From positions 1-64,000 of IMG/VR virus record IMGVR_UViG_3300037448_000016: a DNA stretch of 64,000 nt. One strand, 5' to 3'. How positions within the stretch are numbered: position 1 is the stretch's first letter; the number at the start of each line of letters is the position of its first letter. A program made the translations under genes and the position numbers. This document shows, piece after piece, positions 561 through 64,000 of the stretch. The notes under the pieces are model-generated. The model was not told the DNA's origin, made no database searches, and worked only from the letters and a program-made list of their open reading frames with translations. Origin of the DNA: a virus (taxonomy: Duplodnaviria; Caudoviricetes).

Positions 561-1292
561 ATGACGACGACGAAGAACACCCCGAGCACCCGGCTCCTGG
601 CCTTCCAGCAGCCGATCGCGCAGATCGCGGCAGTAGCCATCGTCGCCGCCGCGATCGTCCTCACCTTCAGCGGCACCGTGGAGTTCTGCGAGCGTCACGG
701 TGCCGCTGGCTGGCGAGGTGTCTCCACGGCGGCCATCACCGACGTCACCGTGCTGATCGGGATCCTCTGGCCCCGGCGCCCGCTTCAGGGCCTCGCCGCG
801 CTGGCCGCCATCTTCACCATGCTGGCCAACCTGGGCCACGCCTCCCCCGGCCTGTCCGGCGTCGCGGTGGCGCTGATCCCGCCGGTCGGCGCGATCCTGA
901 TGGTCGGCGCGCTGGAATACGTGATCAAGCACCCGCTCGACGTGCCGGACACGAACGTCGAGATCACCACCACCGTGATCTTCGACGAAGGCGCGCAGCA
1001 GGAGGCCGAGCGGCTGCGCCTCCTGGTCGAGCAGATGCGGGCCGAGATCGATGCCCTCCAGGTGCAGCCCGAGCAGCCCGAGGTCGAGGCATCCCGCCCG
1101 AAGGCCATCAGCCCTCGCCGTGGAGGGCAGGACCCGCTGCGGGACGTGTGGGACGCGAACGGCCGGACCTGGGACCTGGCCCGGGTCCAGAAAGAACTGA
1201 CCGCCGCAGGCCGTAACGGCGAACTGCGCCCGGCGCGCGAGGTGCTGCGCCGGTGGAACAAGTGGGCCGAGGCCCAGAACGGAGCGAAGTGA
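561..1292 (+). CDS. multi-TM protein with coiled-coil/basic C-terminus, DUF2637/Spd-like
   Basis: Four hydrophobic helices followed by a charged helical tail; architecture typical of actinomycete mobile-element membrane proteins. Confidence 0.6.
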   Translation: MTTTKNTPSTRLLAFQQPIAQIAAVAIVAAAIVLTFSGTVEFCERHGAAGWRGVSTAAITDVTVLIGILWPRRPLQGLAALAAIFTMLANLGHASPGLSGVAVALIPPVGAILMVGALEYVIKHPLDVPDTNVEITTTVIFDEGAQQEAERLRLLVEQMRAEIDALQVQPEQPEVEASRPKAISPRRGGQDPLRDVWDANGRTWDLARVQKELTAAGRNGELRPAREVLRRWNKWAEAQNGAK

Positions 1293-1487: not shown

Positions 1488-1515
1488 TCCTGTTAACGAC
1501 GACGACGGAGGAATC

Positions 1516-2359: not shown

Positions 2360-2542
2360 ATGGTGACGGACGACGAGATAGACCGCCTGAGGGAGGCATT
2401 CATGCAGGAAATGTCCGAGACTCACTGCGGGAACACCTGGTACGGCCCGAACGCGAAGGTGGCGCTGGCCGACCACATGGCAATGAACCATCTGCGCGGT
2501 CACGACGAGACACCGCCGCCGAAAATACCGGAGCGTAAGTGA
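2360..2542 (+). CDS. small hypothetical protein
   Basis: Directly after the promoter; GTGA overlap with the next gene. Confidence 0.6.
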   Translation: MVTDDEIDRLREAFMQEMSETHCGNTWYGPNAKVALADHMAMNHLRGHDETPPPKIPERK

Positions 2543-9969: not shown

Positions 9970-10001
9970 GATGACCTTCTTTCGTCGTCGTCGTTGGTAC
10001 G

Positions 10002-19691: not shown

Positions 19692-19719
19692 GCACCTACG
19701 ACGACACGAGGAGATGCAT

Positions 19720-30690: not shown

Positions 30691-30691
30691 T
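30659..30691 (-). terminator. terminator of the late/lysis operon
   Basis: AAGGGGCCAGG/CCTGGCCCCTT stem just after the holin stop. Confidence 0.7.
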
Positions 30692-30703
30692 CGTCACGCT
30701 CGG

Positions 30704-31069
30704 TTACCGGGTTGCGGTGTGCCCGAGCACCCGAACGCCGTAGTGGTCAGCCACGTTGGCCACGGTGCCGACCTGGATGGCGCCGACGAACGCGATCAGG
30801 ATGGCCGCCCGCTCCGCAGGGGAGATCACGCCGTCCGTCCAGGCGTCCACTACGGCCAGCACGACCGCCGTGAAGATGGCGATGGCCTCCTTGGCGTTGG
30901 GCTGGGTGACGGTGTTGGCCTTGAAGTACACCGCCAGCGCGCCCAGGAACGTCACCACGGCGCCGATGACCACCGGCCGGGTAAAGTCCCCGGCGATGAG
31001 CGCGGCGGCCCCAGTGGAGCCCAGGACGGCGATGAGCGCGTACTGAATTGCTTTCGCTGCGTAATCCAT
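30704..31069 (-). CDS. holin
   Basis: 121 aa, four TM helices, immediately after the endolysin. Confidence 0.75.
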   Translation of the reverse strand: MDYAAKAIQYALIAVLGSTGAAALIAGDFTRPVVIGAVVTFLGALAVYFKANTVTQPNAKEAIAIFTAVVLAVVDAWTDGVISPAERAAILIAFVGAIQVGTVANVADHYGVRVLGHTATR

Positions 31070-31092
31070 TGCTTACTCCTACGTCGCCCGGC

Positions 31093-31815
31093 TCAGCCGG
31101 TCCACTTGATGCCGAGGGCCTTGCAGGTGAGCGGGCCCACGGCGGGATTCCTGTGATCCGCCCGCAGCGCGGGGGATGGTGAGTGCAACTTGAACGACTG
31201 CACCGCAGCCGTCGTCTTCGGGCCGAAGTCGCCGTCTGCGGTCAGCCGTGCCTTGGCCACCGCGTTCAGCGTCTTCTGGAGCAGGATGGTCGAGCGGTGA
31301 TGGGACGTACCGGGCACCAGCACGAACGAGATCGACTTCGTCGGGGTCTTCGCTTCACGGGCCACGCGGATCTTCTTGGCCAGCGCGGCGACCGCTGCCT
31401 TACCCGCGTTGATCTCGAAGTGCATCTCGTCCTTGCGGGAGGTGTAGTGCCCGCCCCAGCGGACCACACCGTCGCAGAAGTCGAGGATCTTGTCGATCGC
31501 CGCGACCTGTTTCGTGGTGAACGTGCCCCGGGCCGCCAGCGGGTGCTGGGGGGCGTTCAGATCGATCGCCGTACCGCTGGCGTGGTTGGAGATGGCCGTG
31601 GAACTGCCCCGGATCGTGCGGGCCGCGTAGCCCCAGCAACCGGGGACGACCAGGCGCTCAACGGTCTTGTTGAACTCGTCCGCGACGTAGATCAGCACGG
31701 TGGCGACGTCGCCGGGCAGGATCGGCAACTTCACGGTGGTGGCGCCGGGCACGATGAAGGTGGCGATGTCGGCACGAGCGACGACCGGCCACCCGTTCTG
31801 GCTGTGATCGGTCAT
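31093..31815 (-). CDS. endolysin: M15-family peptidase plus PG-binding domain
   Basis: SQNGWP, WGYA.R.IRG, SNHASGTAID, RWGG, DEMHFEI; LQKTL...DGDFGPKT..AV..F. Confidence 0.9.
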   Translation of the reverse strand: MTDHSQNGWPVVARADIATFIVPGATTVKLPILPGDVATVLIYVADEFNKTVERLVVPGCWGYAARTIRGSSTAISNHASGTAIDLNAPQHPLAARGTFTTKQVAAIDKILDFCDGVVRWGGHYTSRKDEMHFEINAGKAAVAALAKKIRVAREAKTPTKSISFVLVPGTSHHRSTILLQKTLNAVAKARLTADGDFGPKTTAAVQSFKLHSPSPALRADHRNPAVGPLTCKALGIKWTG

Positions 31816-31919
31816 CAGTCATCCACCCCTTCAGGGAACTCGTCGGGGTCGGCGTAGTCATCCGGCTCGACGGCGGTGTCGTCCGGGTCTGTCACTTCCT
31901 CGCTCGGCTGGGTGCTCAT
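31815..31919 (-). CDS. 34-aa acidic peptide
   Basis: Coupled on both sides; MSTQPSEEVTDPDD... Confidence 0.5.
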   Translation of the reverse strand: MSTQPSEEVTDPDDTAVEPDDYADPDEFPEGVDD

Positions 31920-32302
31920 GGTGTGTGGTCTCCTAGGCTCGGGCGCTCCTTCAGATGGCGCACCTGTTCCAATAATGACTCGTATCGCCGGGCAAAATCG
32001 TCCCGCTCTGCCCGAATTTGCGCTTCCAGACGATTGATGTCGCTTATGTACCGCTGGCGCTCGGCATTGAACTGGGCCCGCTCCTCCGCGAGAGTCGTCC
32101 TCAGCCGGGCGTTATCCTCCGCGAGTTCGTCCCGGGCCCGCGCGATCGTGGCGATCGAGGCGTCCACGAAAGTATTTTGCGTGATCTCCTTGGGCGGGCG
32201 GTTCTTCCAGTCCTTATAGGTCTCGTAGGCGTACTTGGCGCCACCACCGGTCATGAGGACGGTGGCGATAGCGACCCAGGGGTCTGGCGTCGAATTAGGC
32301 AT
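31916..32302 (-). CDS. single-TM coiled-coil protein (lysis accessory)
   Basis: N-terminal TM and heptad region; position before the endolysin. Confidence 0.7.
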   Translation of the reverse strand: MPNSTPDPWVAIATVLMTGGGAKYAYETYKDWKNRPPKEITQNTFVDASIATIARARDELAEDNARLRTTLAEERAQFNAERQRYISDINRLEAQIRAERDDFARRYESLLEQVRHLKERPSLGDHTP

Positions 32303-34646: not shown

Positions 34647-37600
34647 TCAGATCACTTCGACATAGTCGACGTCGATCTGGCGGTGCCGCTGCTGGTACAC
34701 GTTGTACTGCCTCCGGATGAGCCGCGCCTTGAAGGTCTTCCCGTTCGGCTGCTGGACGATGAAGATCGACGTGGAGCGCAGCACGGAGACGACCGCCTCG
34801 ATGTCGGTCGCGTAGGTGAAGATCGTGATGGTGCCGGTCGCGGCCTGCTCGCCCTCGGTATCCACGATCGGGTACTCGCGTCCCGAAGGGTGGCTGATGC
34901 TGGACTGCTCGTCGTCGATCCGGTGGTGGTTGGTCACCAGGGCGTACAACTCGTTGTCCGGCACGCTCAGGTCCCGGATCCCCCAGCGGTCGGCATCGAT
35001 CGTCAGCGTGGCGACCAGGCTGACGGCGCTCTCCACGGCGGAGCCGCCACCGGCGTCCACGTCGGTGAAACCCCGGTAGGAGACTTCCGTGTTGAACGGC
35101 ATGTACCGGTCGATCGCACTGGCCTGCTGCGCCAGGGTCGGCTTCACCCGGTCCAGGATCTGGGTCCAGGTCAGCCCGCCGTCGTCCGAGCGCTCCACCC
35201 GTACCGTCTGCGTAGCGGAGTAGCCGCCTGGCTGCCAGGCCACGGTCCGGCCTGGGTGGAACGAGGGGAACGCGCTGTAGAAGATCTCTCCACCGGCCGT
35301 CGCGCCCAGGATCTCGAACACGACGCGGGCCAGCACGGCGCCGACCGGCGCCACGTCGGTGACGAACGCCTGGACGTAGAACGTCGAATTGATGGTGAAC
35401 TGGTTGCCGACCGACTCGCTGATCAGCGTGCCGGTGCCATCGTCGGCGTCGTACCAGCGGATCCTCACTCGCGCCGACCGGCTGGCCGACGCACAGCGCA
35501 GCGAGGAGAGCGCGGTGTACGCGACCCCCGCCACCACGGGGAACGACAGCGGCCCGTTCGGCTGGACCTGACCGTACGGTGCCAGCGGGGGCGAGCCCGG
35601 CTTCGTCCGCACGCCGACGAGCCCCGCCGCCACGGAGGTGATCTTCACGCCCTGGTACAACTGGTTGACCGAGTCCGAAACCTGCTGCACGACAGTCGAA
35701 TTAGCGTCGTTCTCCCAGCCGTCCGAACCGTCGTTCTGCGCTGTCGTCAGGAACGACGACTGGGCCAGGATGCTCAACTGGGTGAACGGGGCCTGGGTCA
35801 GGAAGTCGACACCGTCGATCGTCTCGATCAGCGGGCCGGACGGCGGCGTGATCGAGATCGAGAACTGGGTGTAGACCCAGGCCGACTGCACTCCGGTCGC
35901 GCTGGTCGAGCGGACGTACGCCCGGTACGTCGCCCCGTTGGTCAGCGGGACGCCAGTGCGGGTGGAGCGGGCGATGGCCGAAGACACCACGCCGGAATCC
36001 CACGTCGCCGTGGTGACGTCGGGGTCGATGCTGGCCTGCTCAAGGATGATCTTCACCTGGTAGTCCCGCTGCGCGTCCAGGCTGGTGTACGTCCAGCCGA
36101 CCAGCGGGGTGGAGTCACCGAACACCAGCCCGGAGGGCGACGTCGGCGTGACGGCCGGGGCCGTGGTGGCGACCACGGTGCGCCCCGTGGCGAAGGCGCT
36201 GTTCGAGCCGGTGGACGATTTGGTGCTGACCGACCACACGTACGTGGTGCCGGTCGTCCACTTCCCGGCCGGGAAGATGGCCTGCGTCGGCGTGGCCGGT
36301 ACGGTCGTGTTGTAGACGACCCCGGCCTGCCACGCCTGCGTGCTGACGTTCCAGTACTCGGTGGTGCTGGAGTAGATCCGCCGGAAAGCCCACGCCTGCT
36401 GGGTGTCCCCGGGGGAGACCGGGTTGTAGGTCCAGGAGAAGACCTGGCCGACCGCGAGGTCGGCGCTCGCCCCCGACGCGGGGGAGACCAGCACCGGAGC
36501 GCTCGGGGCGCGCACGAGCGCGACCAACTGCTGGTAGTAGATCTGCCACGTCGTGCCGCCGCCCTGGGCGTAGATCATGTCCACGCTGTCACGGCTCGGG
36601 TGCCGGACCAATTGGATCTTGCCATCGTCGCCGGTGCTCGGCGGGGCCTGCGATACCGCGACGGCCCAGGCCGACCAGGTTGTCGTGGCGCGGGTGAACT
36701 TCGACCAGCGGATATCGCCGTCCGTGGCGTCGTAGTAGGCCAGGTAGACGTCACCGGTGGTCGGGTCGCACGACAGCGACAGGCCCAGCACGTTGCCGGT
36801 CCCGCCGGGCGCGGCCGGAGGGTTGCGTGCGGTGGGTGCCGCGACGCCGTCCCATTCGTAGACGTTGATCGTGGCCGACGTCTTGCTGTAGGCCACCATC
36901 AGCCGGGAGCCGTCCCAGACGGACGCCAGCGCGGTGTTCACCAGGTCGCCGGTGTCGACAGTGACCGGCGCGTCCCAGGTCCAGGTGCCGCCGGAGTAGA
37001 CCGCCCGGTTGAGCCGGATCGGGGCGCTACTGGCCTGCACGCCGGTGGTGAAGAAGATGTGAGGGGCGGCGGACGGCGTCCGGCCGTCACCGTTGTGCGC
37101 GAACTCCAGGGTGCCGTACTGATTGGCCTGAAGCCCGCTGGACGGGCCGGTGGCGGTCGTGACGACGCTCAGGGCACCCGAGGCACTGACGGCCACCCGT
37201 GAGACCTGTGAGCCACCCGTGGGGCCCTGGGTGAACTCGACGAACGCGACCCAGCCGGTGCCGTTGCGGAACGCCACGACGTCGGACTCGACACCGAGCC
37301 GCCCCGCCGCCGGGGAGATCGTCAGCGTGGTCCAGGACCAGCCTGGCGACGTCGTGCTGGTACCGGTCGGCGTGCCCCGGGCGTAGATGACCACCTGGGG
37401 GTTGTTGGACCAGACGATCCACGAGAGGTGCGCGTAACCGTCCGCGTCGATGAAGAACGACGGCACGGCGGTTGGCTGATTTAGGCCCAGGTCACTCGTC
37501 CCGGCGTAGGCCCACGAGTTGCCGCCGTCCACCGAGCGGAAGAACTTCGCCATGCCGACCGTTCCGGCCGCCACGATGCAGGCCCACATCGACCCGTCCG

Positions 37601-37676
37601 GGGCGAGGTCGAGCCGTTTCTCCGGGGAGCCCTGGAGCGAGTCGCCGTGGTTGCCATCCGTGATCTTGGTGGCCAC
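34647..37676 (-). CDS. large minor tail protein (repeat/FN3-like domains)
   Basis: 1009 aa, T/S/G-rich beta protein directly after the TMP. Confidence 0.75.
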   Translation of the reverse strand: MATKITDGNHGDSLQGSPEKRLDLAPDGSMWACIVAAGTVGMAKFFRSVDGGNSWAYAGTSDLGLNQPTAVPSFFIDADGYAHLSWIVWSNNPQVVIYARGTPTGTSTTSPGWSWTTLTISPAAGRLGVESDVVAFRNGTGWVAFVEFTQGPTGGSQVSRVAVSASGALSVVTTATGPSSGLQANQYGTLEFAHNGDGRTPSAAPHIFFTTGVQASSAPIRLNRAVYSGGTWTWDAPVTVDTGDLVNTALASVWDGSRLMVAYSKTSATINVYEWDGVAAPTARNPPAAPGGTGNVLGLSLSCDPTTGDVYLAYYDATDGDIRWSKFTRATTTWSAWAVAVSQAPPSTGDDGKIQLVRHPSRDSVDMIYAQGGGTTWQIYYQQLVALVRAPSAPVLVSPASGASADLAVGQVFSWTYNPVSPGDTQQAWAFRRIYSSTTEYWNVSTQAWQAGVVYNTTVPATPTQAIFPAGKWTTGTTYVWSVSTKSSTGSNSAFATGRTVVATTAPAVTPTSPSGLVFGDSTPLVGWTYTSLDAQRDYQVKIILEQASIDPDVTTATWDSGVVSSAIARSTRTGVPLTNGATYRAYVRSTSATGVQSAWVYTQFSISITPPSGPLIETIDGVDFLTQAPFTQLSILAQSSFLTTAQNDGSDGWENDANSTVVQQVSDSVNQLYQGVKITSVAAGLVGVRTKPGSPPLAPYGQVQPNGPLSFPVVAGVAYTALSSLRCASASRSARVRIRWYDADDGTGTLISESVGNQFTINSTFYVQAFVTDVAPVGAVLARVVFEILGATAGGEIFYSAFPSFHPGRTVAWQPGGYSATQTVRVERSDDGGLTWTQILDRVKPTLAQQASAIDRYMPFNTEVSYRGFTDVDAGGGSAVESAVSLVATLTIDADRWGIRDLSVPDNELYALVTNHHRIDDEQSSISHPSGREYPIVDTEGEQAATGTITIFTYATDIEAVVSVLRSTSIFIVQQPNGKTFKARLIRRQYNVYQQRHRQIDVDYVEVI

Positions 37677-37685
37677 GTCGTCCTC

Positions 37686-40600
37686 CTACCTCCGCTGAAT
37701 TGCGTTCAGCAACTTGTCTGCCAGTTGGTCACCAGCGCCCGAGATGGCCGCCTGCACCTGGACAGCGGAGGCGTTGTCGCCCACAGTGACCTGGACCGCT
37801 CCGGAGGCTACCTGAATGGTAGCCGCCCCGGCCCCGCTGGCTGGCCGGACGCTGCTCAGCCCGGCGTTGGCGATCTGATCGAACGCCGCCGAACCGTTCA
37901 ACTGGAGGGTCATCAGGTCAGCGATGTCCTTGGCCGCTGTGGCGATGGCCGGAGTCGAGTTGGCGATACCGGCGGCCAGGTCCTCACTGAAGTGCTGGCC
38001 ACGGATCTGCGTCCAGCCCTGCCCGGACAATGGGCCGGTCACGGCGGGCGAGCCTGGCAGCAGGTCGGTGATCTTTTTGACCGCGCCTTTCACGGCGTCC
38101 AGTGCCGAGCCCAGCCCGGACAGAATCCCCTTGGCGAAATCCTCCATCAGCGCCCGGCCTGCCGACAGGAAGCGGCCCGCCGAGCCGGTAATCGCTGAAA
38201 CCATCCGGCCGATCCCAGAGGAGACCGCCGAGACGGTACTGGAGAAGCCAGATTTCACGGCCGACACGATGTTGCTCATCCCGGTCCGCACCGCCGACAC
38301 CATGTTCGACCAACCGCTGCGGACAGCGCTGACGATGCTGGACAGAACGCTGGTGAACGTCGAGTGAATCGCATTCCAGGTCGAACTGATCACCGAGTGG
38401 ATCGCTGACATCGCGGCCGAGATGAGGCTGCGCATGGTGGACCAGGCCGAACTCACCCCGGCCACGATCGCGTTCAGCGCGGCGGTGAAAATCGCCCTGA
38501 TAGCGGCCCAGGCGCTCGACAGGATCGACTTCCAGGTGTCGGCCGCCGCCGTCAGCCCGGAAACGATGAGCGACCAGGCGGCTTTCAGCAGGGCGACGAT
38601 GGCATCCCACGTAGCCTTGCTCAGCGAGACGATCGTCTTCCAGGCCGCCGTCAACCCGGCCACGACCGCGTTCCATCCGGCGACGAAAATGGCGATCACT
38701 GCGGCCCAGAAAGCATTGATCCCGGCCTGGATCGCGTTGACCGCACCGGTGAAGATGCTCGTGATCAGGTTCCACGCCGCCGTGACGCCAGAAGTGATGA
38801 GAGACCAGGCGGTCTGTGCGGCGGTTTCCAGCCCGGCCCACATGGCGGCCCAGACCTGAAGCAGCACGGCGCCGAAGGCCACGACGATACCGATGACGAC
38901 CTCCACGGCGGCGCGCAGCAGGCCGAAGATGATCGTCCAGACGCCCTGGAGGATCAGGACGATCCCGTTCCACATCGCGGACCAGTCACCGGCCAGCAGG
39001 GCGCCGAAGAAGGTGATGATCCCCTCGATGATCAGGATCGCCCCGGAGATCACCGCCTTGATGGCGTCCCAGACGCCCTGAAGGATGATCAGCATCCCGG
39101 GCCAGATCGTGCTCCACAGGCCCGTGATGAACGCCAGCCCGGCCTGGAAGATGGCCGATATGACCGTCCAGGCGGCGGAGAAGAACGTGACGATGTTGTT
39201 CCAGGCGGCCTGGAAGGTGCCCGCGTTCTTGCTGGCCCAGTCCCGGATCTGGTTGAACTGCTCGATGACGAAGCCGACCACGGTGGCGACCACCGGGCCG
39301 AACGTGCTGCTCAGCCAGGCAGCGACCGCCCCCAGCCCGCCGACGATCGCGGTGAAGACGGTGGATGCGAACGCCAGGACCGCACCGGCGACCGCGTCCA
39401 CGACGGTACGGAACGTCTGAAAATGACCGTAGGCGTAGATAATCGCTGCCGCCAGGGCGACCACCGCGAGCACCACCAGGGTGATGGGCGAGGTGATGAG
39501 CGCCAGAGTCGAGGCGAACAGTCCGGCGCCGACTTCCGCCACACCGAACGCGACCGCGATCGACTCGACCAGGCCGATGACCGCCGTGATGGGGCCCACC
39601 ACGGCGAGGAACGCCGCCGCGAGCCCGGTCGACAGGAACGCTATGGCCACCAGGTGGGGCGCGATGTCGGACGCCACCTTGATGAGATCGAAGATCCGGG
39701 AGACGACGAAGACGATCCCCTCACCGACCGGCGCCAGCGCCCGGACGAGGGAGACGAACCCCTGGGCGAACGCCCCGATCAGCGCGAGCACGGCCGGGGT
39801 CTGGTCACGGATGTACTGCACGAAGTCCTGGAACGACGTGTTCGTGGCCAGGTTCGTGGCCCACTCGGCGAACCTGGCCGTCATAGCCTCCAGCCCGCCG
39901 GAGAACGAGACGGACAGCGGCATGAAGCCACTCACCAGACCGGCGAACGCCTTCAGAAGGTTGCCGATCGAGCGGCCCAGCGACTCCAGCATCGGCTTCG
40001 CCTGGCTGCCGACCATGCTGATGAACCCCTGCCAGAACGGGCCGGTCAGCGCGGACACCGCCGAGCGCTCCAGGTCCAGGAAGGCGTCGGCCGCGCCTTT
40101 CACGATCGGGGCCAGCGACGGCAGGAGCCCGCCGAGGCCGCGTAGCCCTTCCTGCGCGATCTGGAAGATCTCCGGCTGGAACTGGGCCGCGAACGTGTGC
40201 CAGGCCGCCTGAAACGCCTGGATCGACTTCACCATCTGCTGCTGCGCCGGGGTAAGGGAATCCATGATCCCCTTCAACTTGGTCAGCGCGGCGTCCCGTT
40301 GCGCGTCGGTGGTGGCCTGGTTGTACTGCAACTGCGCGGCCTTCATCTTGGTCAGCGCCTGAGTGACCGGCGAGAAGACCGACACTGCAACGGCGCCGAA
40401 CAGTCCGGCCGCCACGCCCGCGACGGTAAGTTCGGCGGCGAGCGCGGCGATCCCACCGACCGCGACCGCACCGATCGGGATCAGCGCCGGGGCCAGCAGC
40501 AGAACGGCGGCGACCAGCCCGCGCATGTTGCCTGACGCCCGGTTCGACGTCGTGCCGAGCCGGTCCATGGACTGCTCGGCCTCATCGATCGGCCCCCGGT

Positions 40601-53843: not shown

Positions 53844-55526
53844 TTAGTACGCGCGGGCCTTACCCTTGGCTCTGGTGAGGCGCCGGGCCGGTCGCCATGC
53901 GTCAGGACCGATGGCGTGAAGATCGGCGGCTGCCTCGTGGGCCAGGGTATCCGCCATCGCGATGTCAATCTTCTGGTGTGCGCTGGGCTTGCCCAGGATG
54001 TACTTGTCGCCCGGCTTGGCCACCTTCCGCGCTGAGGAGATGTGCAGCGCGGCCACCGCGTCCGCGTCGTGCGTGCTGCGGCCCGATTTCAGGTCGTTGA
54101 AGGCCCGTTTCAGCGCGAGGAACATGGCATCGATGCGCCAGGTGTTCCACTCGAAGACCTCCTCCTCGCCGTACGCCAGGGCCCAGTCACCGATCTCCGA
54201 GCGCCAGTCCCTCGGGTCGCAGTAGAAACGCCGCAGCCGGTATCGCGTGGCGATCTCGTCCACGCACGCCTGCACTTCGCCGCGCGGGATGGAGCCGCCC
54301 CACTCGGCCGGGTTCCAGTAGGCCGGGCGCCGGTCGGGGCCGTAGTGCGGGGTGAAGCGGTAGCCGTCCTGCGTCTCCAGCCGGATCGCGGTCCAGTCGT
54401 CGTTCTCTGAGCCGTCGAAGCCACCGGCGACCGCCGTGCCGTCCGGCGGCTCGGGGCGGGTCTTGTCCTCGTGAGCCTCCCAGAGCGCGTCCTCGATCCA
54501 CTGGCCGAGGCCCGCCACGATCCGGTTGCCGTAGAACCGCTCGGCCATGCCCGGGTCGGTCAGGATGATCTCTTCGGCCTCCGCGTTGACTGCGGACAGG
54601 TCGACCCACCACGAGCCCCGGTAGACGTGCCGCAGGATGCGCATCCGCTCGCGCTTGTCGGTGAACGACAGGTGCGCGGGGGCGAGCCGGTGCAGCCGGA
54701 AGATGTCCTTCTTCACCCGGCTGGACAGTTCGGTCTGCTGGGCCACCGAGTTCTCGGACGGATCCCAGCCGTTGGTCGTCTCCACCACGCGCCCGGCCAT
54801 ACCGGAGACACCACGGCGCTGGGTCTGCGCGACCTTCACCATGTTGCCGCCCTTGCCGTCTTTCGACATCGGCAGCCACAGGCCGACCTCGTCCTGCGGG
54901 ACGAACGTGACGCGCTGGCCGAGCCGGGACTGGTTGTTGCTCGTCACCCGGTCGATCCGGCCGTCTTCCGGCAGCCGGATGAACTCCTCACCGGTGCGGG
55001 GGATGACGTTGGTCAGCGGGCCTTTCTCGATCATCGGGCGCAGCGCGTCCCAGACGTTCCCGGCCTGTTCCTCGGAGAAGGCGGTGATCTGGATCAGCGG
55101 CGTCGGCCGGACGGCGCCCATCGGCTCGCCGCGCTCGTACTCGTACTCCCAGCCGCACGGGCAGCCGTTGTCGTCGCAGCGGTAGACCTCGCCGCCTTCG
55201 GCCCAGCCCGCGAACATGCTCGGGCCGACCGCTTCCAGGCAGCACTGAGCCGCCGTCATCGGGCCCTTGCCCGCCTTCTGCGGCATGACGACCTGCGAGC
55301 GCCGGTACCAGAACGCCGGGGCCCCCACCGCCGGGGAGCGGGTCAGACGCGCCGTCGGCTTCACCCGGTAGTGGTTGAGGAAAAACCACTCCTGCCAATC
55401 GGCCAGAAGATACGGCTCACCGGCCGAAAACTGGTCCGGGATAACGCAGTGCGCTTCCACCCAGTCGACCGTGATGAACATCGTCGGCCATTCGACGACG
55501 AACTGGTCCGGGTCTTGCGGCGGCAT
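53844..55526 (-). CDS. terL: terminase large subunit
   Basis: PQKAGKGP Walker A, IQITA.SEEQA, FVPQDE, GFDGSENDD.TA nuclease, KID..MA..LA. Confidence 0.92.
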   Translation of the reverse strand: MPPQDPDQFVVEWPTMFITVDWVEAHCVIPDQFSAGEPYLLADWQEWFFLNHYRVKPTARLTRSPAVGAPAFWYRRSQVVMPQKAGKGPMTAAQCCLEAVGPSMFAGWAEGGEVYRCDDNGCPCGWEYEYERGEPMGAVRPTPLIQITAFSEEQAGNVWDALRPMIEKGPLTNVIPRTGEEFIRLPEDGRIDRVTSNNQSRLGQRVTFVPQDEVGLWLPMSKDGKGGNMVKVAQTQRRGVSGMAGRVVETTNGWDPSENSVAQQTELSSRVKKDIFRLHRLAPAHLSFTDKRERMRILRHVYRGSWWVDLSAVNAEAEEIILTDPGMAERFYGNRIVAGLGQWIEDALWEAHEDKTRPEPPDGTAVAGGFDGSENDDWTAIRLETQDGYRFTPHYGPDRRPAYWNPAEWGGSIPRGEVQACVDEIATRYRLRRFYCDPRDWRSEIGDWALAYGEEEVFEWNTWRIDAMFLALKRAFNDLKSGRSTHDADAVAALHISSARKVAKPGDKYILGKPSAHQKIDIAMADTLAHEAAADLHAIGPDAWRPARRLTRAKGKARAY

Positions 55527-55830: not shown

Positions 55831-56127
55831 TTACTCCAGGGTGAGCGGTGGCATCGGCCACAAGGGGATCGGCACGGCAGCCGACTGCCGGGCTCGCTGG
55901 TCCCCCACCGGCAGGATAGCGACATTGGCCCAGCGCACCGTCGTGTGACCACCGTGGCCGTGGACCGCTCGGGCCTGGTCGATCGAATCCCAGAGCGCCG
56001 TGGAGGGGGTCGCGGTCAGCCAGCGCAGCGCCACGCGCCCGTCCGTGAACTCCACCCCCTCCGCGACGATCCCCGTGCCGGACACGCCGCTGACGTCGAC
56101 CTCCCTCACCAGATGGAACGGTCGCAT
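55831..56127 (-). CDS. conserved small phage protein (DVSGVSGTG..AEGVEF.DG...HGH.G)
   Basis: Recognisable motif; TGATG coupling to terS. Confidence 0.75.
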   Translation of the reverse strand: MRPFHLVREVDVSGVSGTGIVAEGVEFTDGRVALRWLTATPSTALWDSIDQARAVHGHGGHTTVRWANVAILPVGDQRARQSAAVPIPLWPMPPLTLE

Positions 56128-56711
56128 CAGAAGGGGATATCTCCTTCGGGCTCCTGCTCGTCGCCGTGCTCGTCGGTCTTCGGCAGGTCCTCGTCGGCCG
56201 TGGGCGGCACGACGGTGAACTTGTTCCGGCTGCCCTTGGGGCGGCCGACCGGTCGGCCGGTGGGCACGTAGTTGCTCGGCGGGGCGCCGGAGCGGATCGC
56301 CGAATCGAGCAGTTCCGCTTCCCGCGTGCCGTCGATGACGTACCGGCCGCTGGCCAGCGCCGCCGGGGTGAGGAACAGGTCGTTCGACAACTGCCGGACG
56401 AACATCCGGGCCTGCGCACCGGCCTTGGGGTTCATCGCCTCCAGGTAGGTGCGGACGTAGAACGCCACCAGGTCGTTGGAGCGGTCCATCTCCCAGACCA
56501 GCGCCTGGGGGAGCGTCCACACCTCGCGCCACTTCAGCAGTTCGTCCTCGTTGGGCTCCGGAACGGCAGCGGGCCACTCCGGAGCCTCAGCGAGGCGCCC
56601 CGCCGCAGGGAGTTTCGTCCACTCCTTGCCGTCCCGGTTGCGCTTCAGTGCCTGCATGTCCGGCGCCGGTCCGCTACGGACTCGTGCGCCGCCTGATCCT
56701 GGTCCGCCCAT
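56127..56711 (-). CDS. terS: terminase small subunit (actinophage type)
   Basis: GG.GSGG.R.RSGPAPD..AL.R.R; W..W..PQA..W; L.LTP.A. Confidence 0.8.
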   Translation of the reverse strand: MGGPGSGGARVRSGPAPDMQALKRNRDGKEWTKLPAAGRLAEAPEWPAAVPEPNEDELLKWREVWTLPQALVWEMDRSNDLVAFYVRTYLEAMNPKAGAQARMFVRQLSNDLFLTPAALASGRYVIDGTREAELLDSAIRSGAPPSNYVPTGRPVGRPKGSRNKFTVVPPTADEDLPKTDEHGDEQEPEGDIPF

Positions 56712-56720
56712 CCCCCCAGA

Positions 56721-57725
56721 CTAGCGCCGCAGGTCGAAGACCTGGTTCTTGATGACCAGGGGCTTATCCTCGGGGCCGCGAACGTGGTCGTTGATCCAGA
56801 TTCGCTTGCGCTCTTTCCGGCCTTCACCGTGGGCCTGCCAGCGCCAGAACCCGCGTACCAGCCAGCGGTGCGACCACTCCACGGCGCTGCCTTCGGCCTC
56901 GTCGGGCCGCTTGGCGTACCGGTGCTTGCGCAACTCCACGACGGTCACCTTGGAGTCTTTCGGCATCCGGGCCTTCTTGAGGCCAGGCTTCACGCTGGGG
57001 TGAGGCCGCTGCGTGCTGACCACGGTGATCTGCTGGTCGATCATCAGCCAGAAGGCGTGCAGCAGCCGGGCCGTATTCGTGACGGGCATCTCCGCGATGT
57101 TGCCGCTGATCTCGACCGGATCGTGAGCGTCGCCCCGGCTGACGTATTCAGGCAGCACGGACGGCCCGAGCGACAGACCGTTGGGCCGGGAGACGATCTG
57201 GGTCCAGCGCCACCGGCCGAACACCTTCTGGCTCACGCTGGACGCCACCGCCGTGGTCACGCCTTCCTCAGGCCGGTCGACGGCGTCCATCATCAGGATG
57301 TAGGTCACTCCGGTTGCGCCAGCCCGCCAGAGGATCCAGTCGACCCAGGTATCGATCTCGCCCACGATGATGCGCAGACCGCCGTCGAACCGGACCAGCC
57401 CCGACGACGACGGCGCGAGCGCCGCATTGGTCACGTCGGACTCGTCGAGTCCCTCGGCGGCGTGCTGGATCACCTTGGTCATGTCGGCGGACACGTGGAA
57501 CGCCTCAGCGTTGCGAGCGATGACGCTGGTGTCATGGGCCAGTTCGGCAGCGATGCGGAGTTTCTCCCGCTCCTGGATCGGGAGCAGCACACCACTGAGC
57601 CGTTCCCTCGTCGCGGTCTGGTAGAAGAACCGCGCGGTGTAGATCATGAATTCGTCGTCCTGGAAGCGGCGGAGCAGATCCGCCTGCGCTTCAAGGACTT
57701 TCGCCGGTGCCATCTTCGTCGCCAT
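56721..57725 (-). CDS. hypothetical protein with C-terminal HRWLVRGFWR.Q..G.GR..RK.IWI motif
   Basis: 334-aa ORF; leaderless start 5 nt after the -10 box. Confidence 0.75.
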   Translation of the reverse strand: MATKMAPAKVLEAQADLLRRFQDDEFMIYTARFFYQTATRERLSGVLLPIQEREKLRIAAELAHDTSVIARNAEAFHVSADMTKVIQHAAEGLDESDVTNAALAPSSSGLVRFDGGLRIIVGEIDTWVDWILWRAGATGVTYILMMDAVDRPEEGVTTAVASSVSQKVFGRWRWTQIVSRPNGLSLGPSVLPEYVSRGDAHDPVEISGNIAEMPVTNTARLLHAFWLMIDQQITVVSTQRPHPSVKPGLKKARMPKDSKVTVVELRKHRYAKRPDEAEGSAVEWSHRWLVRGFWRWQAHGEGRKERKRIWINDHVRGPEDKPLVIKNQVFDLRR

Positions 57726-57730
57726 GGTTC

Positions 57731-57760
57731 ATTGTAAGCGTCCAGTCAGTGACTTGTCAA
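57731..57760 (-). promoter_or_regulatory. promoter TTGACA-N18-TACAAT, leaderless
   Basis: Near-consensus; 11-bp TGAC repeat. Confidence 0.8.
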
Positions 57761-57764
57761 CTAC

Positions 57765-57885
57765 TGGACAAATAGAGAGAGGCCGATCGCATGGCCTCTT
57801 CAGGCGTTTGCGTTCGGCCCCTCTCGGCGGCGGCCAACCCTGGGATGAGGTTTGACGACGACGACCCAGTTTCGCAGCACCGCTG
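57765..57885 (-). ncRNA. putative sRNA with GUCGUCGUCGUC loop
   Basis: Upstream TTGACA-N17-CATAGT; CUGGG/CCCAG stem with 20-nt loop; GAGA tetraloop hairpin; GAGGCC/GGCCUC terminator-like hairpin; no ORF. Confidence 0.5.
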
Positions 57886-57891
57886 TGGTCA

Positions 57892-57920
57892 ACTATGGGC
57901 GATGGTCAGCCCGTTGTCAA
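57892..57920 (-). promoter_or_regulatory. promoter TTGACA-N17-CATAGT
   Basis: TTGACAACGGGCTGACC phage motif. Confidence 0.55.
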
Positions 57921-57921
57921 C

Positions 57922-58236
57922 CTAGACGCGCGAGGTCGGCTCACCAGCCGACACCACGATCTCGGTCACCTCGCCGGTCACGACGTCAATCGCCAGGCTG
58001 CCCTGGAAATTGACCGTGCCGTCGCCGTCCGGGTCGTCGTTCACGGTCACGACGGCGGTGCCGAGGGTTCCCGTGGTGACGACCAGCGCGGTGCCGTCGC
58101 CGTTGTCGGTCAGGGTCAGGATCGACTCGTCGTCCACCGTGAACGCCAGGCCGGTCGGCTGGATCGGTACCGGGTTGCCAGCGGCATCCACACCGGAAAC
58201 GGACAGGGTGACCTGCTGGGAATCGAGCAGTTGCAT
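57922..58236 (-). CDS. small Ig-like acidic protein (the ORF may extend to 58488)
   Basis: RBS AGGAG before MQLLDSQQVTLSV..DAAGNP; beta-sandwich pattern. Confidence 0.7.
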   Translation of the reverse strand: MQLLDSQQVTLSVSGVDAAGNPVPIQPTGLAFTVDDESILTLTDNGDGTALVVTTGTLGTAVVTVNDDPDGDGTVNFQGSLAIDVVTGEVTEIVVSAGEPTSRV

Positions 58237-58844
58237 GGTGACGTCTCCTAGGTGAGCGGAACTCGCCGGGCGGTGCTTCCGCTTCCGGCGGTGAGGGTTT
58301 CCAGAGAGTGGGCGGCTGGTGACAGGACCGATCGTCCAATGCACCCCTCCACGGCGAGGCGGGCCCGCGAGCGGGACAGCGGTCGTCGTGGTGGTCACCG
58401 TCCAGCCGAGCGGGAATTGGCTCGACAGGTCCATGAGTGGCAATTCGATGACGCACCTCCCGGTAGCGAAATCAGGGTGCCACAGCAACGGCCGAACGGG
58501 CGAGTACGGACACAGAAACGGCCCACCGGGGTCGAGTCCGGTGAGCCGTCCTGCCAGACAGATAACACGCTGTCAACCGTGGCGTTTACCGGCCGCTCGC
58601 CCTGTCCGCCGTGCGGCTACGATCCAGTCATTGACCGGGCGCGATGTCGCAACGGTTTCCAGATCTGGGATCCTACACCGGATGGTGCCCGGAGCGCACC
58701 CCGCCGGGCCGGGTGGAACGACGGATCTGGAGCACCACTCCATCACCGTCGAGTGCTGGGCCGCGATCCGGGTTCCACCCCGGGCCGACCGTATGGCGCT
58801 CAGTTCGCAGTCTCTGGCCTTGCGGCGTAGTGCTGCTCACCTTC

Positions 58845-58907
58845 TGCGTGCCCCTGCCGGTCTCGAACCGGCTCGACGGGTGCTCCACCGTCTTTAACCT
58901 AATGGGC
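58845..58907 (-). ncRNA. tRNA-like module (T-arm GCCGG-TTCGAGA-CCGGC, stemless D-loop)
   Basis: GCCCAT/AGGGGC acceptor-like stem, TAGGTTAAA, GACGG/CCGTC arm. Confidence 0.5.
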
Positions 58908-59084
58908 GCGTCCGCCCGGGGCTTGCGACCGGCGGTAGGCACCGGGAGGAACCGAAGTCCCCCATCGGGGAGACGCTATGCGCCCCGAACCCATACCACC
59001 GGCCCACCAGGCACTGCCGTCCTCGGTCTCCGGGTCTGGAACCAGGTTCCTTTACGGCTGGACCTACACGCGGCAGTGCTTGGC

Positions 59085-59159
59085 TGGTGGAGCCCCAGGG
59101 AATCGAACCCCAGTCGGTTTCCGCCGAGATAACTCGGCCCCCTGCTGCCAGCGTGCCCC
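59085..59159 (-). ncRNA. tRNA-Ala-like / tmRNA tRNA-like-domain RNA with encoded ACCA
   Basis: GGGGCAC...GG-TTCGATT-CCCTG-GGGCTCC-A-CCA; G3.U70 pair; no canonical D stem or 7-nt anticodon loop. Confidence 0.65.
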
Positions 59160-59230
59160 TTGACCCTCAGCGTCCGCCGGAGGATCGCTCCAACGCTGCG
59201 AGGGTACAGCCGGTTGGGGCTGCGAGACAC

Positions 59231-59271
59231 AGTCTTCCACGCTTGACTGGACGCTGTCAAGGTTTTGTCAA
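59231..59271 (-). promoter_or_regulatory. tandem TTGACA x2 (11 bp apart); promoter TTGACA-N18-AAGACT
   Basis: Direct reading. Confidence 0.55.
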
Positions 59272-59774
59272 TTGCCAATGCGGTCTCGCTTGTCCAGGTT
59301 GCAGCCCAAATGAGCCAGTTGGACATTGGCCAGCACGTGCTTGCCACCGCGCGAAATCGGGAACCGGTGATCGAGGCTTTTGCTCGCTCGATCCGGATAC
59401 TCCAGCGTCATATCCACCAGTCCGCCGCAGAGACGGCACGTCCAGCCGTCGCGGCGGGCGACCTCCGTCAGCAGGATGCGCTCACCGGAGTCCATCTGTG
59501 CTCGGCGCCGGTGGTAGGCATCGCGGCGCCGGTCATTCCAGCCACCAGCCGATTCGTACTCGGCCGCGTAGTCCCGAGGCGGACGTGACTCTTTCAGGTG
59601 GGTGTTGCAGAGACCTTTCGCGCGATGCGGCCGGTTGCAGGATTTCCGCGAGCAACGGCGGGGGTTCGCTCGCTCCTGGCATTGCTTGCAGCAGTACAGC
59701 CTGGGGCGGCCAGATCCGGTACGGAATGGGAGCAAATTGGCGCATGGAAAGGCTTGACAGGTCGTTGTCGTCAC
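59268..59774 (-). CDS. HNH endonuclease (packaging-associated type)
   Basis: RDGWTCRLCGG...SLDHRFPISRGG.H...NVQLAHLGCN. Confidence 0.85.
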   Translation of the reverse strand: MTTTTCQAFPCANLLPFRTGSGRPRLYCCKQCQERANPRRCSRKSCNRPHRAKGLCNTHLKESRPPRDYAAEYESAGGWNDRRRDAYHRRRAQMDSGERILLTEVARRDGWTCRLCGGLVDMTLEYPDRASKSLDHRFPISRGGKHVLANVQLAHLGCNLDKRDRIGN

Positions 59775-60145
59775 GGCTTCAGCCTACCAGTTCACGCTCC
59801 CCCGTGCGACGCCCCGACAATCAACTGACAACTGACTATTTGAACCAACTTGTGGAAAAAGTGCTCTCCCCCTTAGGTCCAGGCGCGCGAGGCGGGGAGG
59901 GGGCGCCCCCCAGGGTGGGGCCCGAGCCGAGCCGGAGCCGCAGCCCCGAGGCGCCCTGTGGTCAGCCGCTTGACAAGCCGTGGTCAGCCGTGAGAGGGTG
60001 GCCCCATGCCGCAGTGAGGGGCACCCGGAAGGGGCTCGCACAGCAGCAGCAGCACCCCCGCTGCACCCCTGCACCGCACGGAGCCTCGCTCCCTCTGCAC
60101 AGCACGGGTCCGGAGGGGCAGGCACCACAGCACGGCAAGGCAGGC

Positions 60146-60505: not shown

Positions 60506-60550
60506 TCCACCACGACGACGACGCACCGACACCGCCCCTGGAGGCAACCA

Positions 60551-61090: not shown

Positions 61091-61096
61091 GGCACA

Positions 61097-61145
61097 GGCC
61101 GGAGGACCGCGAACACGGCGGTACGGCTCGACACCTCCTCCGGCC
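61097..61145 (+). repeat. 49-nt structured intergenic element, copy A
   Basis: GGCCGGAGG-ACCGC-GAACACG-GCGGT-ACGGCTCGACACCT-CCTCCGGCC. Confidence 0.85.
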
Positions 61146-61179
61146 ACTCGACCCACCAACGACGAAAGCGAGGCGCGAC

Positions 61180-61507: not shown

Positions 61508-61536
61508 TCAACCACCGACGACAACGAGGAGTGACC

Positions 61537-61824: not shown

Positions 61825-61875
61825 GCCTCTGGCAGCGCACCTCGACGGCGCTACGGCTCGAATCCGGCCAGGGGC
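61825..61875 (+). repeat. structured intergenic element, copy B (51 nt)
   Basis: GCCTCTGGC-AGCGC-ACCTCGACG-GCGCT-ACGGCTCGAATCCG-GCCAGGGGC. Confidence 0.85.
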
Positions 61876-61907
61876 ACGCACACCACTCCGACAACGAAAG
61901 GCCCATC

Positions 61908-62123
61908 GTGATCAAGGTCATCGACTCCATCGTTCGGCTCAGGAGTTCCGTCAACGGAAACCCGCGCTACGAAATCACGTTCACCGACGGCACGGTTGCC
62001 CGTACTGCTTCCGATCACCAGTTCGCTACCTTCGTCGAGAACCAGGGAATGCGGAACGGCGACACGGTGCGGGTCGAGATCAACGGTAAGGGCACGATCT
62101 CGCACATGGAGCCGAAGTCCTGA
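61908..62123 (+). CDS. small OB-fold-like hypothetical protein
   Basis: RBS GAAAGG; S.NGNPRY.ITF.DG motif. Confidence 0.7.
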   Translation: MIKVIDSIVRLRSSVNGNPRYEITFTDGTVARTASDHQFATFVENQGMRNGDTVRVEINGKGTISHMEPKS

Positions 62124-62324: not shown

Positions 62325-62358
62325 TCAACCACCGACGACGACGAAACGAGGCCACACA

Positions 62359-62673: not shown

Positions 62674-62679
62674 AACCCG

Positions 62680-62728
62680 GCCTCTGGCACCGCGAACACG
62701 GCGGTACGGCTCGAATCCAGCCAGAGGC
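62680..62728 (+). repeat. 49-nt structured intergenic element, copy C
   Basis: GCCTCTGGC-ACCGC-GAACACG-GCGGT-ACGGCTCGAATCCA-GCCAGAGGC. Confidence 0.85.
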
Positions 62729-62785
62729 ACGCAAGGCAAGAGCGGAAGTCCTTGCCTCCCACCCCAACTCACCCAGGAGAGCACC

Positions 62786-63028: not shown

Positions 63029-63034
63029 AACTCA

Positions 63035-63083
63035 GCCTGGCGGACCGCGAACACGGCGGTACGGCTCGACACCGCTGCCAGGC
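63035..63083 (+). repeat. 49-nt structured intergenic element, copy D
   Basis: GCCTGGCGG-ACCGC-GAACACG-GCGGT-ACGGCTCGACACCG-CTGCCAGGC. Confidence 0.85.
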
Positions 63084-63115
63084 ACGCACACCACCCCGAC
63101 GACGAAAGGCGCATC

Positions 63116-63271
63116 ATGACCGAACAGGGCAAGTGGATCATGTGGGCCGATCCCAAGCGCGGCACTCAGCCGCTGGGAACGATCCTGTCCAGCGACGACG
63201 ACACCATCACGTACCAACCGCGTTTCGGGCGGCCGATCACGGTCAAGCGGGCCGAAGTGAAGATCCGCTGA
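63116..63271 (+). CDS. small hypothetical protein
   Basis: RBS GAAAGG; 51 aa. Confidence 0.6.
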   Translation: MTEQGKWIMWADPKRGTQPLGTILSSDDDTITYQPRFGRPITVKRAEVKIR

Positions 63272-63441: not shown

Positions 63442-64000
63442 ATGACGACGACGAAAGGTGCTCCCGTGGCAACGCTGGCCGACATCCTCCCCTCCGAGAC
63501 TGCGATGGTCCGGAACATCCTGAAGGTCTACCGTTCCGCCACCGACGCGCAACGAGGCCAGGGAATGGCCTGGTACGACGAGGCGCACAGCCTGGCGGTT
63601 GCGCTGGACCCGGAGAACCCGATGCGAGCAGCCGGTGTCATCTCGGCGCTCTCCCCTCGGATCCAGTGGTCGTACAACCAGAAGTTGGCCATCCGGCTGT
63701 ACGCCGACGGCGTGCTGACCGGCGGCTGCCTGCCTGCGAACTACACGAAGGCGAACAAGATCTTTAACGGGGCCGACGTGATGGCCACGCTGAAAGCACC
63801 CAAGACGCAAGCGTTCGCCGCGACCATTGCCAATCCGGCAGGCGATCACGCTCCCGTGATCGACCGTCACGCTTTCAGCGTTGCCGTCGGATACGCCAGT
63901 ACCGACGACGACACGTCGATCCTGGGACGCAAGGGGGCGTACGACCTGTTCGCCGGGGCGTACCGGAAGGCAGCGAAGCGGGCCGGGATCAGCCCGAGCC
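63442..64000 (+). CDS. conserved phage protein, partial (WY..A...ALSP...W..N...IDRHA); possibly HhH-glycosylase-like fold
   Basis: Open frame running off the window end; alternative GTG start at 63466; fold call is weak. Confidence 0.6.
   Translation, partial: MTTTKGAPVATLADILPSETAMVRNILKVYRSATDAQRGQGMAWYDEAHSLAVALDPENPMRAAGVISALSPRIQWSYNQKLAIRLYADGVLTGGCLPANYTKANKIFNGADVMATLKAPKTQAFAATIANPAGDHAPVIDRHAFSVAVGYASTDDDTSILGRKGAYDLFAGAYRKAAKRAGISPS

Follow-up and report, generated by a model that had tools for sequence, protein, structure and literature searches.

The stretch of DNA analyzed here (hereafter the window, 64,000 nucleotides of the IMG/VR record IMGVR_UViG_3300037448_000016) comprises the first 64 kb of a viral contig 77,934 bp in length, with 127-bp direct terminal repeats and a GC content of about 66%. 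Given that its large terminase is at most 55% identical to the terminases of isolated phages, the nearest of which are from Arthrobacter and Streptomyces phages, the source is, judging from this protein, an uncultured actinobacteriophage; the public sequencing runs that contain this DNA are soil DNA metagenomes only, and no RNA run is among those listed. A 196-bp gap that separates two minus-strand genes, one for a 104-aa Ig-like protein upstream and one for a 334-aa protein downstream (Table 1), encompasses a predicted unit at 57768-57920 (minus strand), which consists of a promoter followed by a transcript of about 110 nt that is free of open reading frames (ORFs), with a predicted 5' end at about 57884. 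The analysis below suggests that this locus is a stand-alone gene for a non-coding RNA of about 110 nt, which we name the anti-tag RNA, and that the apical loop of this RNA is antisense to a short GAC-repeat sequence, the tag, at the predicted 5' ends of many transcripts of the same phage.

The promoter of the RNA begins 2 nt past the stop codon of the upstream gene, and the predicted 5' end of the transcript falls about 7 nt past the -10 box, at the foot of the P1 helix. A promoter of a recurrent type, an ORF-free segment behind it and a CUGGG/CCCAG stem displaying a 20-nt loop had all been proposed in a preceding sequence-only reading of the window, and all three were recovered (Table 1). 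That reading also envisaged a GAGA-loop hairpin followed by a separate terminator hairpin; the terminator stands, but the best fold has one long hairpin in place of two. The predicted fold of the complete RNA has an energy of -60 kcal/mol (z -4.43), which none of 200 shuffled sequences matched, and the mean unpaired probability is 0.79 in the core of the loop versus 0.37 across the whole RNA. The sole minus-strand reading frame at the locus encodes 30 aa from a TTG located within the -10 box and is not conserved. No tRNA or tmRNA was detected at the locus; searches against Rfam 15 yielded no match above noise at E<=10 for positions 57000-58600 and none at the gathering score anywhere in the window. 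In the literature, we found no description of this RNA or of the GAC tag.

Relatives of the unit were sought in several ways. Megablast with the locus against 50,697 phage records returned nothing, and nothing was returned either when viral contigs were searched with the neighbouring 334-aa protein, the exact loop or a strict promoter pattern. The terminase retrieved 13 viral contigs at 65-89% identity, and in nine of these (large terminase 71-89% identical) the RNA unit was recognised by BLASTN and reading by eye, in seven distinct sequence versions: the carriers are L012; L002, L003, L008 and L013; L004 and L005; and L009 and L010, which have a more diverged form. Contigs with a terminase identity of about 50% contain no such element. 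Scanning of metagenomes with the conserved 5' motif produced 24 matches, of which two are genuine near-copies of known versions (L046, a metagenome contig with the L013 version, and L059) and the others are chance matches in coding regions; among the matches listed for a looser loop-to-late-gene pattern in viral contigs, there were chance ones and no added member. In bacterial genomes, the terminase search detected only relatives at 48-50% identity, in Mycetocola and Actinomyces metagenome-assembled genomes, and neither host nor prophage copies were found.

The layout of P1, P2, loop and terminator is present in each homologue, with z values of -3.2 to -6.4 in eight relatives. A covariance model of the 5' domain (R1) scored the window at 72.1 bits (57827-57885, E 1.7e-15) and reached 61-85 bits over eight loci; it missed the diverged L009 and L010, both of which were assigned on the strength of their position, promoter, loop core and terminator. 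The loop core UCGUCGUCA is identical in all 10 loci while the flanks vary and the size of the loop ranges from 16 to 20 nt; in the structural ensemble, the unpaired probability of the core is 0.52-0.80 across the homologues versus approximately 0.3-0.37 for the whole RNA. The P2 stem that encloses the loop comes in six or seven different sequences, and the variants are always complementary: CUGGG/CCCAG, UCCGGG/CCCGGG, CCCGG/CCGGG, CAUCC/GGAUG, CGCCUGG/CCAGGCG and CACG(U)/(A)CGUG. In a model-based alignment of eight loci (A5), 90.8% of the cells are paired versus 35-65% with slid partners, five pairs are changed on both sides, and the covariation score was reached by none of 500 shuffles; given that both the MAFFT and the model alignment leave the P2 stems of L012, L004 and L005 shifted in register, the pairing is understated. 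The terminator hairpins of the relatives are entirely different in sequence, equal in strength and found in the same place.

The versions differ by 2-nt indels, and the distance from the ATG in the loop to the ATG of the following gene is 93, 95 or 97 nt, so that there is no conserved reading frame; a small or leader peptide (a Val-Val-Val-Val frame) was accordingly rejected as a candidate, the indels being frame-breaking. An ORF on the opposite strand is likewise excluded, given that its start codon varies (TTG in the window, CTG in L012); the corresponding leaderless mini-gene (ATGACGACGACG...) also has no promoter of the family described below upstream of it. With a predicted promoter and intrinsic terminator of its own, in the same layout in the window and in nine relatives, the locus would constitute an independent transcription unit, and by all sequence indications it is a new, conserved, structured RNA gene.

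The promoter of the RNA belongs to a two-box family of the form TTGACAAC-N3-4-(C/T)TGAC(C/A)A-N6-7-TAnnnT that is represented by 23 copies in the 77.9-kb genome. In this family, two direct TTGAC(A/C)A boxes located about 11 bp apart, and hence on the same face of the helix, precede a TAnnnT -10 box; the second of the two direct boxes resembles the operator of some regulator. The family drives coding genes, the small RNA and a long ORF-free region alike. The member that lies just downstream of the RNA puts the ATG at 57725 on its predicted +1 and opens the 334-aa gene and the packaging block; because of this placement, the 334-aa gene looks leaderless. Throughout, the transcript starts were predicted from the spacing to the -10 box.

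The complement of the loop, (A)UGACGACGA, is the tag, and it is found at predicted positions +1 to +12 of transcripts from family promoters, 6-8 nt past the -10 box, in two forms. The leaderless form, ATGACGACGA(CGA), encodes Met-Thr-Thr-Thr and was identified at 561, 63442, 64776 and, on the minus strand, at about 70877, 72185 and 73531; the leader form, (A)ACGACGACGACG followed by a ribosome-binding site (RBS), occurs at 1495, 9981-9995 (minus) and 76705, whereas the RBS is more distant from the runs at 60511 and 62333. The sequence-only reading had listed ten GAC runs at transcript starts or RBS regions and had taken them for a common leader. Six of these runs are perfect (561, 1495, 9981-9995 on the minus strand, 60510, 62335 and 63442), those at 19698 and 61517 are imperfect, and those at 62139 and 63098 are 9 nt long and adjacent to an RBS but have no two-box promoter upstream. 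Some of the tags are indeed leaders, but about half are the 5' ends of leaderless mRNAs and include the UG of the start codon. As a separate observation, repeats of the D3/D4 families (CCGCGAACACGGCGGTACGGCTCGA...) are located between early genes (61095-61157, 61845-61911, 62678-62764 and 63033-63119), and behind two of the copies come CCCCGACGACGAAAGG and an ATG, which amounts to 9 nt of GAC repeats beside an RBS with no two-box promoter upstream.

The association of tags with promoters exceeds chance. Six of the ten genomic copies of TGACGACGA on both strands fall into the 23-nt windows behind promoters, which account for 0.34% of the strand space (binomial p 3e-13). For duplex energy with the loop, the background consisted of 25,970 windows; 12 of the 23 promoter-proximal 5' ends reach its top 1%, and complementary sites are spread over at least 14 separate promoters genome-wide. 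Tags are missing from the promoters of the RNA itself, of the late operon (the 5' end at 57725, AUGGCGACGAAG, with a duplex energy of -16.5 and a background fraction of 0.025) and of the large ORF-free region (59271), and from a few others.

The distance from the tag to the -10 box is the same for coding (leaderless AUGACGACGA) and untranslated (AACGACGACGACGGAGGA) tags; because this distance is kept whether or not the tag is translated, the tag is selected at the nucleic-acid level. Such selection could act on DNA as well: the (GAC)n sequence might be a double-stranded site for a phage or host protein, located just downstream of promoters in a stoperator-like manner, with the copy at the RNA locus being one more site in the reversed orientation. 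The fixed distance fits this possibility, and so does the precedent of the stoperators of Cluster A mycobacteriophages, asymmetric repeated sites whose orientation is linked to transcription (cited in PMC3203893). A DNA operator, however, has no need for a flanking hairpin, yet the reverse copy is always found in the loop of a stem that changes its sequence but keeps its pairing, and always within a unit bounded by a promoter and a terminator, once per genome and in a conserved position. We regard this explanation as improbable.

Selection at the level of the mRNA could also have a different cause, namely that the tag is an element of translation or mRNA stability, either an unstructured 5' end that favours 70S ribosomes or a site of pairing with rRNA, in which case the anti-tag RNA would be a mimic or competitor of the tag or would be aimed at host transcripts. 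GAC repeats should be unable to pair with themselves, which would suit leaderless initiation, and bacterial 16S rRNA contains GUCGUCA in the helix 34 region. The 7-mer shared with the rRNA is within chance expectation, however, and a function of this kind would, on its own, give no reason to expect a conserved antisense loop. Although a role in translation initiation has likewise been proposed for the start-associated sequences (SAS) of Cluster K mycobacteriophages (PMC3203893), to which we return below, we find a primary role of this kind quite improbable here.

The 39-kb record that holds L009 (G002) was treated as an independent replicate. Its promoter design differs (TTGACAA-N-GTGCAATGATTGCACC), with a perfect palindrome (GTGCAAT-G-ATTGCAC) overlapping the -10 box, and all 12 promoters with the box TGCAATGATTGCACC start directly with ATGACGACGAC. 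This 11-mer occurs 13 times on both strands of G002, and the 13th copy is the antisense of the L009 RNA loop (CGUCGUCGUCAU; CACACGUCGUCGUCAUAAC); the late-gene start of G002 is untagged (-12.8 kcal/mol, background fraction 0.09). These 12 promoter cassettes are near-identical and are located, for example, at 27805-32196 (+) and 37278-38852 (-); the first 7-8 codons behind them are semi-conserved. The L009 loop additionally extends over the start-codon A and U, and the L013, L004 and L005 versions (GUCAUG) do so too, whereas in the window and L012, where many tags are in leaders, the loop continues as GUCAAAC and GUCAGCG instead; these differences, although anecdotal, fit co-evolution of the RNA with the tag. 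Promoter tags were detected in L012, L004 and G001 as well, and the RNA and the tag are retained together in relatives with different promoters and stems. In L009, L010 and the L013 group, the RNA promoters carry a palindrome, TTGAC(A/T)A-N4-6-TTGTCAA, unlike the palindrome of the tagged promoters; because the palindromes differ, transcription of the RNA is probably controlled differently from that of its targets in these phages. In the form T(A/T)GAC(A/T)A-N4-6-TTGTCAA, the palindrome over the RNA promoter was located at L013 1466-1495, L002 2163-2190, L010 1334-1362 and G004 40058-40090, and it also marks a divergent promoter pair elsewhere, which suggests that the RNA answers to another regulator than the tagged genes do.

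It might be argued that the loop owes its GUC run to chance or to the low complexity of GC-rich DNA and that this run is unrelated to the GAC runs at the 5' ends; indeed, the genome, at 66% GC, also has GAC, ACG and GTC runs in its coding regions, such as those at 57402 and 50892. Outside the promoter windows, however, the 156 kb of strand space contain just four copies of TGACGACGA, one of which lies in the 20-nt loop itself, as its antisense; furthermore, the core is invariant over 10 loci while its flanks change, and the result in G002 holds for 13 of 13 copies. Coincidence is already very unlikely on these counts. Taken with the covariation in related phages (0 of 500 shuffles, five doubly changed pairs, six or seven P2 stems), the comparative sequence evidence lends good support to the claim of the sequence-only reading that one RNA is antisense to a shared 5' tag; the underlying observation is confirmed as real and non-random, and the overall interpretation placed on it is partly supported.

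The location of the unit is compatible with yet another role. The unit is always immediately upstream of the packaging genes: in all nine relatives, it is preceded by an unrelated gene and followed by the phrog_226 gene that precedes the terminase, and in the relatives, its terminator stops 10-30 nt short of the first late gene. Thus, the RNA could be a cis-acting leader of the late operon, with an always-on promoter whose terminated leader serves as a gate or insulator for the packaging and structural genes, or with a loop that senses tagged early mRNAs and then permits read-through. The lambda Q and HK022 put leaders combine a promoter, a structured RNA and a terminator in this manner, and the lambda PR'-6S RNA-tR' segment and HK022 put likewise place, immediately upstream of late genes, a strong promoter and the short, structured and terminated transcript that it yields. 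Those leaders act in cis on their own polymerase, and their late genes have no promoter of their own; in contrast, the anti-tag unit is followed by a separate -10 box and a leaderless start past the terminator, and its loop is antisense to other transcripts. In every relative, the first late gene has a -10-like hexamer 5-7 nt before the ATG and no RBS, so that this gene looks leaderless and would therefore be translated poorly from a read-through transcript. In the window, a complete second promoter and the extra 334-aa gene stand between the RNA and the packaging genes; this gene is missing at the junction between the RNA and the phrog_226 gene in all nine relatives and, with its own promoter, appears to have been inserted there. 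Moreover, a purely cis role leaves the exact antisense match of loop and tag, including that in G002, unexplained. A cis-acting leader is, in our view, unlikely, even if it merits some consideration.

The explanation we favour, with a probability of roughly 0.6, is that the anti-tag RNA acts in trans, as an antisense RNA that blocks translation by pairing with 5'-terminal tags. According to this model, a sigma-70-type promoter would start the RNA at the foot of P1, a long intrinsic terminator would end it, and P1 and P2 would present the 16-20-nt loop with its invariant core, which would pair in trans with (A)UGACGACGA(CGA) and thereby engage the 5'-most 9-12 nt of at least a dozen phage transcripts of one promoter family. 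In leaderless mRNAs, the duplex would hide the 5' AUG that 70S ribosomes need, and in mRNAs with short leaders, it would abut the RBS; because the start codon is covered or the RBS is abutted, the most likely outcome would be a block to ribosome binding, possibly along with cleavage of the duplex, and we infer repression rather than activation. In the case of the two leaders in which the tag is far from the RBS, an effect on 5'-end-dependent decay, in either direction, would be equally likely. Untagged messages, including that of the packaging and structural operon, which starts right after the RNA terminator, would escape. If expressed as predicted, a stable RNA with a base-paired 5' end could accumulate during infection or persist in a carrier state, progressively silencing the tagged genes, so that the RNA may function in timing, through stable accumulation, or in immunity. 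As for the early-to-late or dormancy switch suggested previously, the promoter class alone cannot give the timing because, in this genome, the RNA, the late operon and the tagged genes use the same promoter family.

Several considerations weigh against this explanation. Sharing a promoter family with its proposed targets, the RNA would be made together with them in this genome, and one RNA gene would have to titrate at least a dozen transcripts, which would call for a much greater stability of the RNA. The tags at 60511 and 62333 are located 25-35 nt upstream of the RBS, outside the ribosome footprint, so that pairing there would affect stability, if anything, and could even protect the 5' end. 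The homologues are few, the 10 loci corresponding to 7-8 distinct sequences, and all come from a single clade of uncultured soil phages; no early region accompanies the commonest RNA version (the L013 type), which the comparison of tags accordingly leaves out; and the contig of the complete relative G001 ends inside the gene beside the expected locus. Finally, the case is built on sequence, with the transcript starts derived from the -10 spacing alone.

The features of the RNA locus, its neighbourhood and the predicted targets are listed in Table 1. Domain searches with Pfam identified an HNH-FtsK/SpoIIIE fusion (2539-4161, +), a Prim-Pol/D5-type primase-helicase (16424-18697, -), a JAB-domain protein (7926-8750, -) and a lone HNH gene in an ORF-poor region (59268-59774, -), and no integrase was detected among the ten large ORFs scanned. 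The region at 58500-59271 (-), downstream of the family promoter at 59271-59243, includes about 700 nt that show no codon-position GC signal and contains a tRNA-like piece (59089-59142) that ends in ...GGGGUUCGAUUCCCUGGGGCUCCACCA; this piece has a weak, mascRNA-like match in Rfam (20.4 bits, E 0.63) and was not called by ARAGORN. The region may encode a structured RNA of large size; alternatively, it may be what remains of an attachment site at the 3' end of a host tRNA or tmRNA.

Table 1. Features of the anti-tag RNA locus, its neighbourhood and the predicted target sites in the window (promoters, folds and targets are predictions; energies in kcal/mol)
Feature	Position	Strand	Details
RNA promoter	57892..57920	minus	-35 TTGACA, 17-nt spacer, -10 CATAGT; second box CTGACCA; consensus scan, 10/12
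RNA 5' domain	57827..57884	minus	P1, P1b, P2; minimum free energy and partition-function folds, covariance model R1, covariation counts
P1 (GCGGUG/CGCCGC)	57878-57883 with 57827-57832
P1b	57872-57874 with 57835-57837
P2 (CUGGG/CCCAG)	57865-57869 with 57840-57844
Apical loop, 20 nt	57845..57864	minus	UCGUCGUCGUCAAACCUCAU
Invariant loop core, proposed seed	57853-57861	minus	UCGUCGUCA
Terminator	57768..57825	minus	long imperfect hairpin 57775-57825, then CUAUUUGU; terminator scan and fold
Second family promoter	57760-57731 (feature 57723..57760)	minus	TTGACA-18-TACAAT; 11/12 matches; not part of the RNA
Family promoters in the window (examples)	524, 1458, 2328, 10031(-), 11673(-), 30408(-), 57760(-), 57920(-), 59271(-), 60146, 60476, 61478, 62295, 63406		
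Predicted target, leaderless	561..573	+	AUGACGACGACGA; promoter 524; -22.9, background fraction 0.0005
Predicted target, leader	1495..1507	+	AACGACGACGACG; abuts RBS GGAGGA; promoter 1458
Weaker predicted target, leaderless	2364..2377	+	GUGACGGACGACGAG; HNH-FtsK operon; promoter 2328; -19.2, background fraction 0.006
Predicted target, leader	9981..9995	minus	AACGACGACGACGAA; variant family promoter TTGACAAC..TAGGAT at ~10031-10003
Imperfect tag	19698..19710	+	ACGACGACACGA; beside RBS GGAG; TAGACT -10 box upstream
Predicted target, 5' end	60511..60523	+	CACGACGACGACG; promoter 60476
Imperfect tag	61516..61528	+	CCGACGACAACGA; beside GGAG; promoter 61478; -15.1, weak
Predicted target, 5' end	62333..62344	+	(AC)CGACGACGACGA; promoter 62295
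Predicted target	63442..63454	+	AUGACGACGACGA at predicted +1; promoter 63406; -22.0
104-aa Ig-like gene	57922-58236	minus	upstream of the RNA locus
334-aa gene, phrog_15934	56721-57725	minus	downstream of the RNA; own leaderless family promoter
phrog_226 gene	56127-56711	minus	ATGGGTGGA...; between the 334-aa gene and the terminase
Large terminase	53844-55526	minus	

To our knowledge, almost all known phage antisense RNAs act on one neighbouring gene or on one operon leader. The closest in logic to the anti-tag RNA are the c4 RNA of P1 and P7 and the CI RNA of P4, small structured phage RNAs in which a loop pairs with short repeated sites and shuts down a block of genes. The c4 and CI RNAs are processed from the operon that they control and act on two sites in its leader; in contrast, the anti-tag RNA has a predicted promoter and terminator of its own, does not match any Rfam family at E<=10, the C4 family included, and has its putative sites at the extreme 5' ends of at least a dozen separate transcripts, many of them leaderless. 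Leaderless initiation is common in Actinobacteria. Among host RNAs, 6C of Actinobacteria and RsaE/RoxS of Firmicutes likewise carry a short conserved motif in a loop that pairs with many mRNAs at their initiation regions, independently of Hfq and in Gram-positive bacteria. These RNAs are host-encoded and direct C-rich seeds to G-rich RBSs, whereas the anti-tag RNA, which has no Rfam match, would be directed to a dedicated phage 5' tag.

A further parallel is found in Cluster K mycobacteriophages, in which SAS, a short asymmetric motif, occurs in 11-19 copies beside the start codons of non-structural genes, in one orientation (PMC3203893), often just downstream of a repeated cassette that consists of a SigA-like promoter and repeats (ESAS) (PMC3203893). 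As noted by Pope et al., K1 genomes contain exactly one SAS in the opposite orientation (PMC3203893), and the function of SAS is still described as unknown (PMC3203893, PMC11373665, PMC12699233). The resemblance, namely a short one-orientation motif near starts, downstream of repeated promoters, along with a single reverse copy, is one of logic and not of homology. Unlike the (ACG)n tag at the transcript 5' end, SAS is a 13-bp sequence (GGGATAGGAGCCC) that is located 3-9 bp before start codons and overlaps the RBS, and no antisense RNA has been proposed for it. In the phage Anaya (JF704106), we located the reverse SAS at 59870-59882, within a 385-bp ORF-free gap between gp96 and gp97, where the transcribed strand reads GCGCGG-CCUCCUAUCCC-CGCGC; the encompassing region (59,780-60,010; L081 34780-35010) folds at z -4.3. 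A conserved ORF-free element of this type, in which an invariant TTTTAGACT box lies upstream and a hairpin that covaries is accompanied by a GCGCG/CGCGC stem, is shared by 165 Cluster K phages; in some of these, it is annotated as a hypothetical protein. The K1 loop CCUCCUAUCCC is the reverse complement of SAS at 12 of 13 positions, and the exact antisense match is confined to K1. Given that, outside K1, the loop remains C/U-rich and contains no exact anti-SAS, the putative anti-SAS of Cluster K is a lead and not a result.

Generalizing from these observations, a tag and an anti-tag RNA could form a common actinobacteriophage scheme in which a set of mRNAs is tagged and one loop-antisense RNA serves as the switch, either as a timer or as RNA-based immunity; we advance this generalization as a tentative and rather doubtful one. 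If it is true, however, the same logic could account for the SAS of Cluster K, which has been unexplained since 2011, and it offers a concrete hypothesis for start-associated repeat motifs in well-studied mycobacteriophages. In any case, the apparent match of a single RNA to a tag on at least a dozen separate phage transcripts, a tag that often includes a leaderless start codon, is new. If the antisense mechanism proposed here is correct, the anti-tag RNA would be a virus-encoded, regulon-wide translational switch and a rare case of a small RNA aimed at leaderless initiation, and the combination of a 9-12-nt tag with a 110-nt RNA could be a portable, orthogonal knock-down module for high-GC Gram-positive bacteria.

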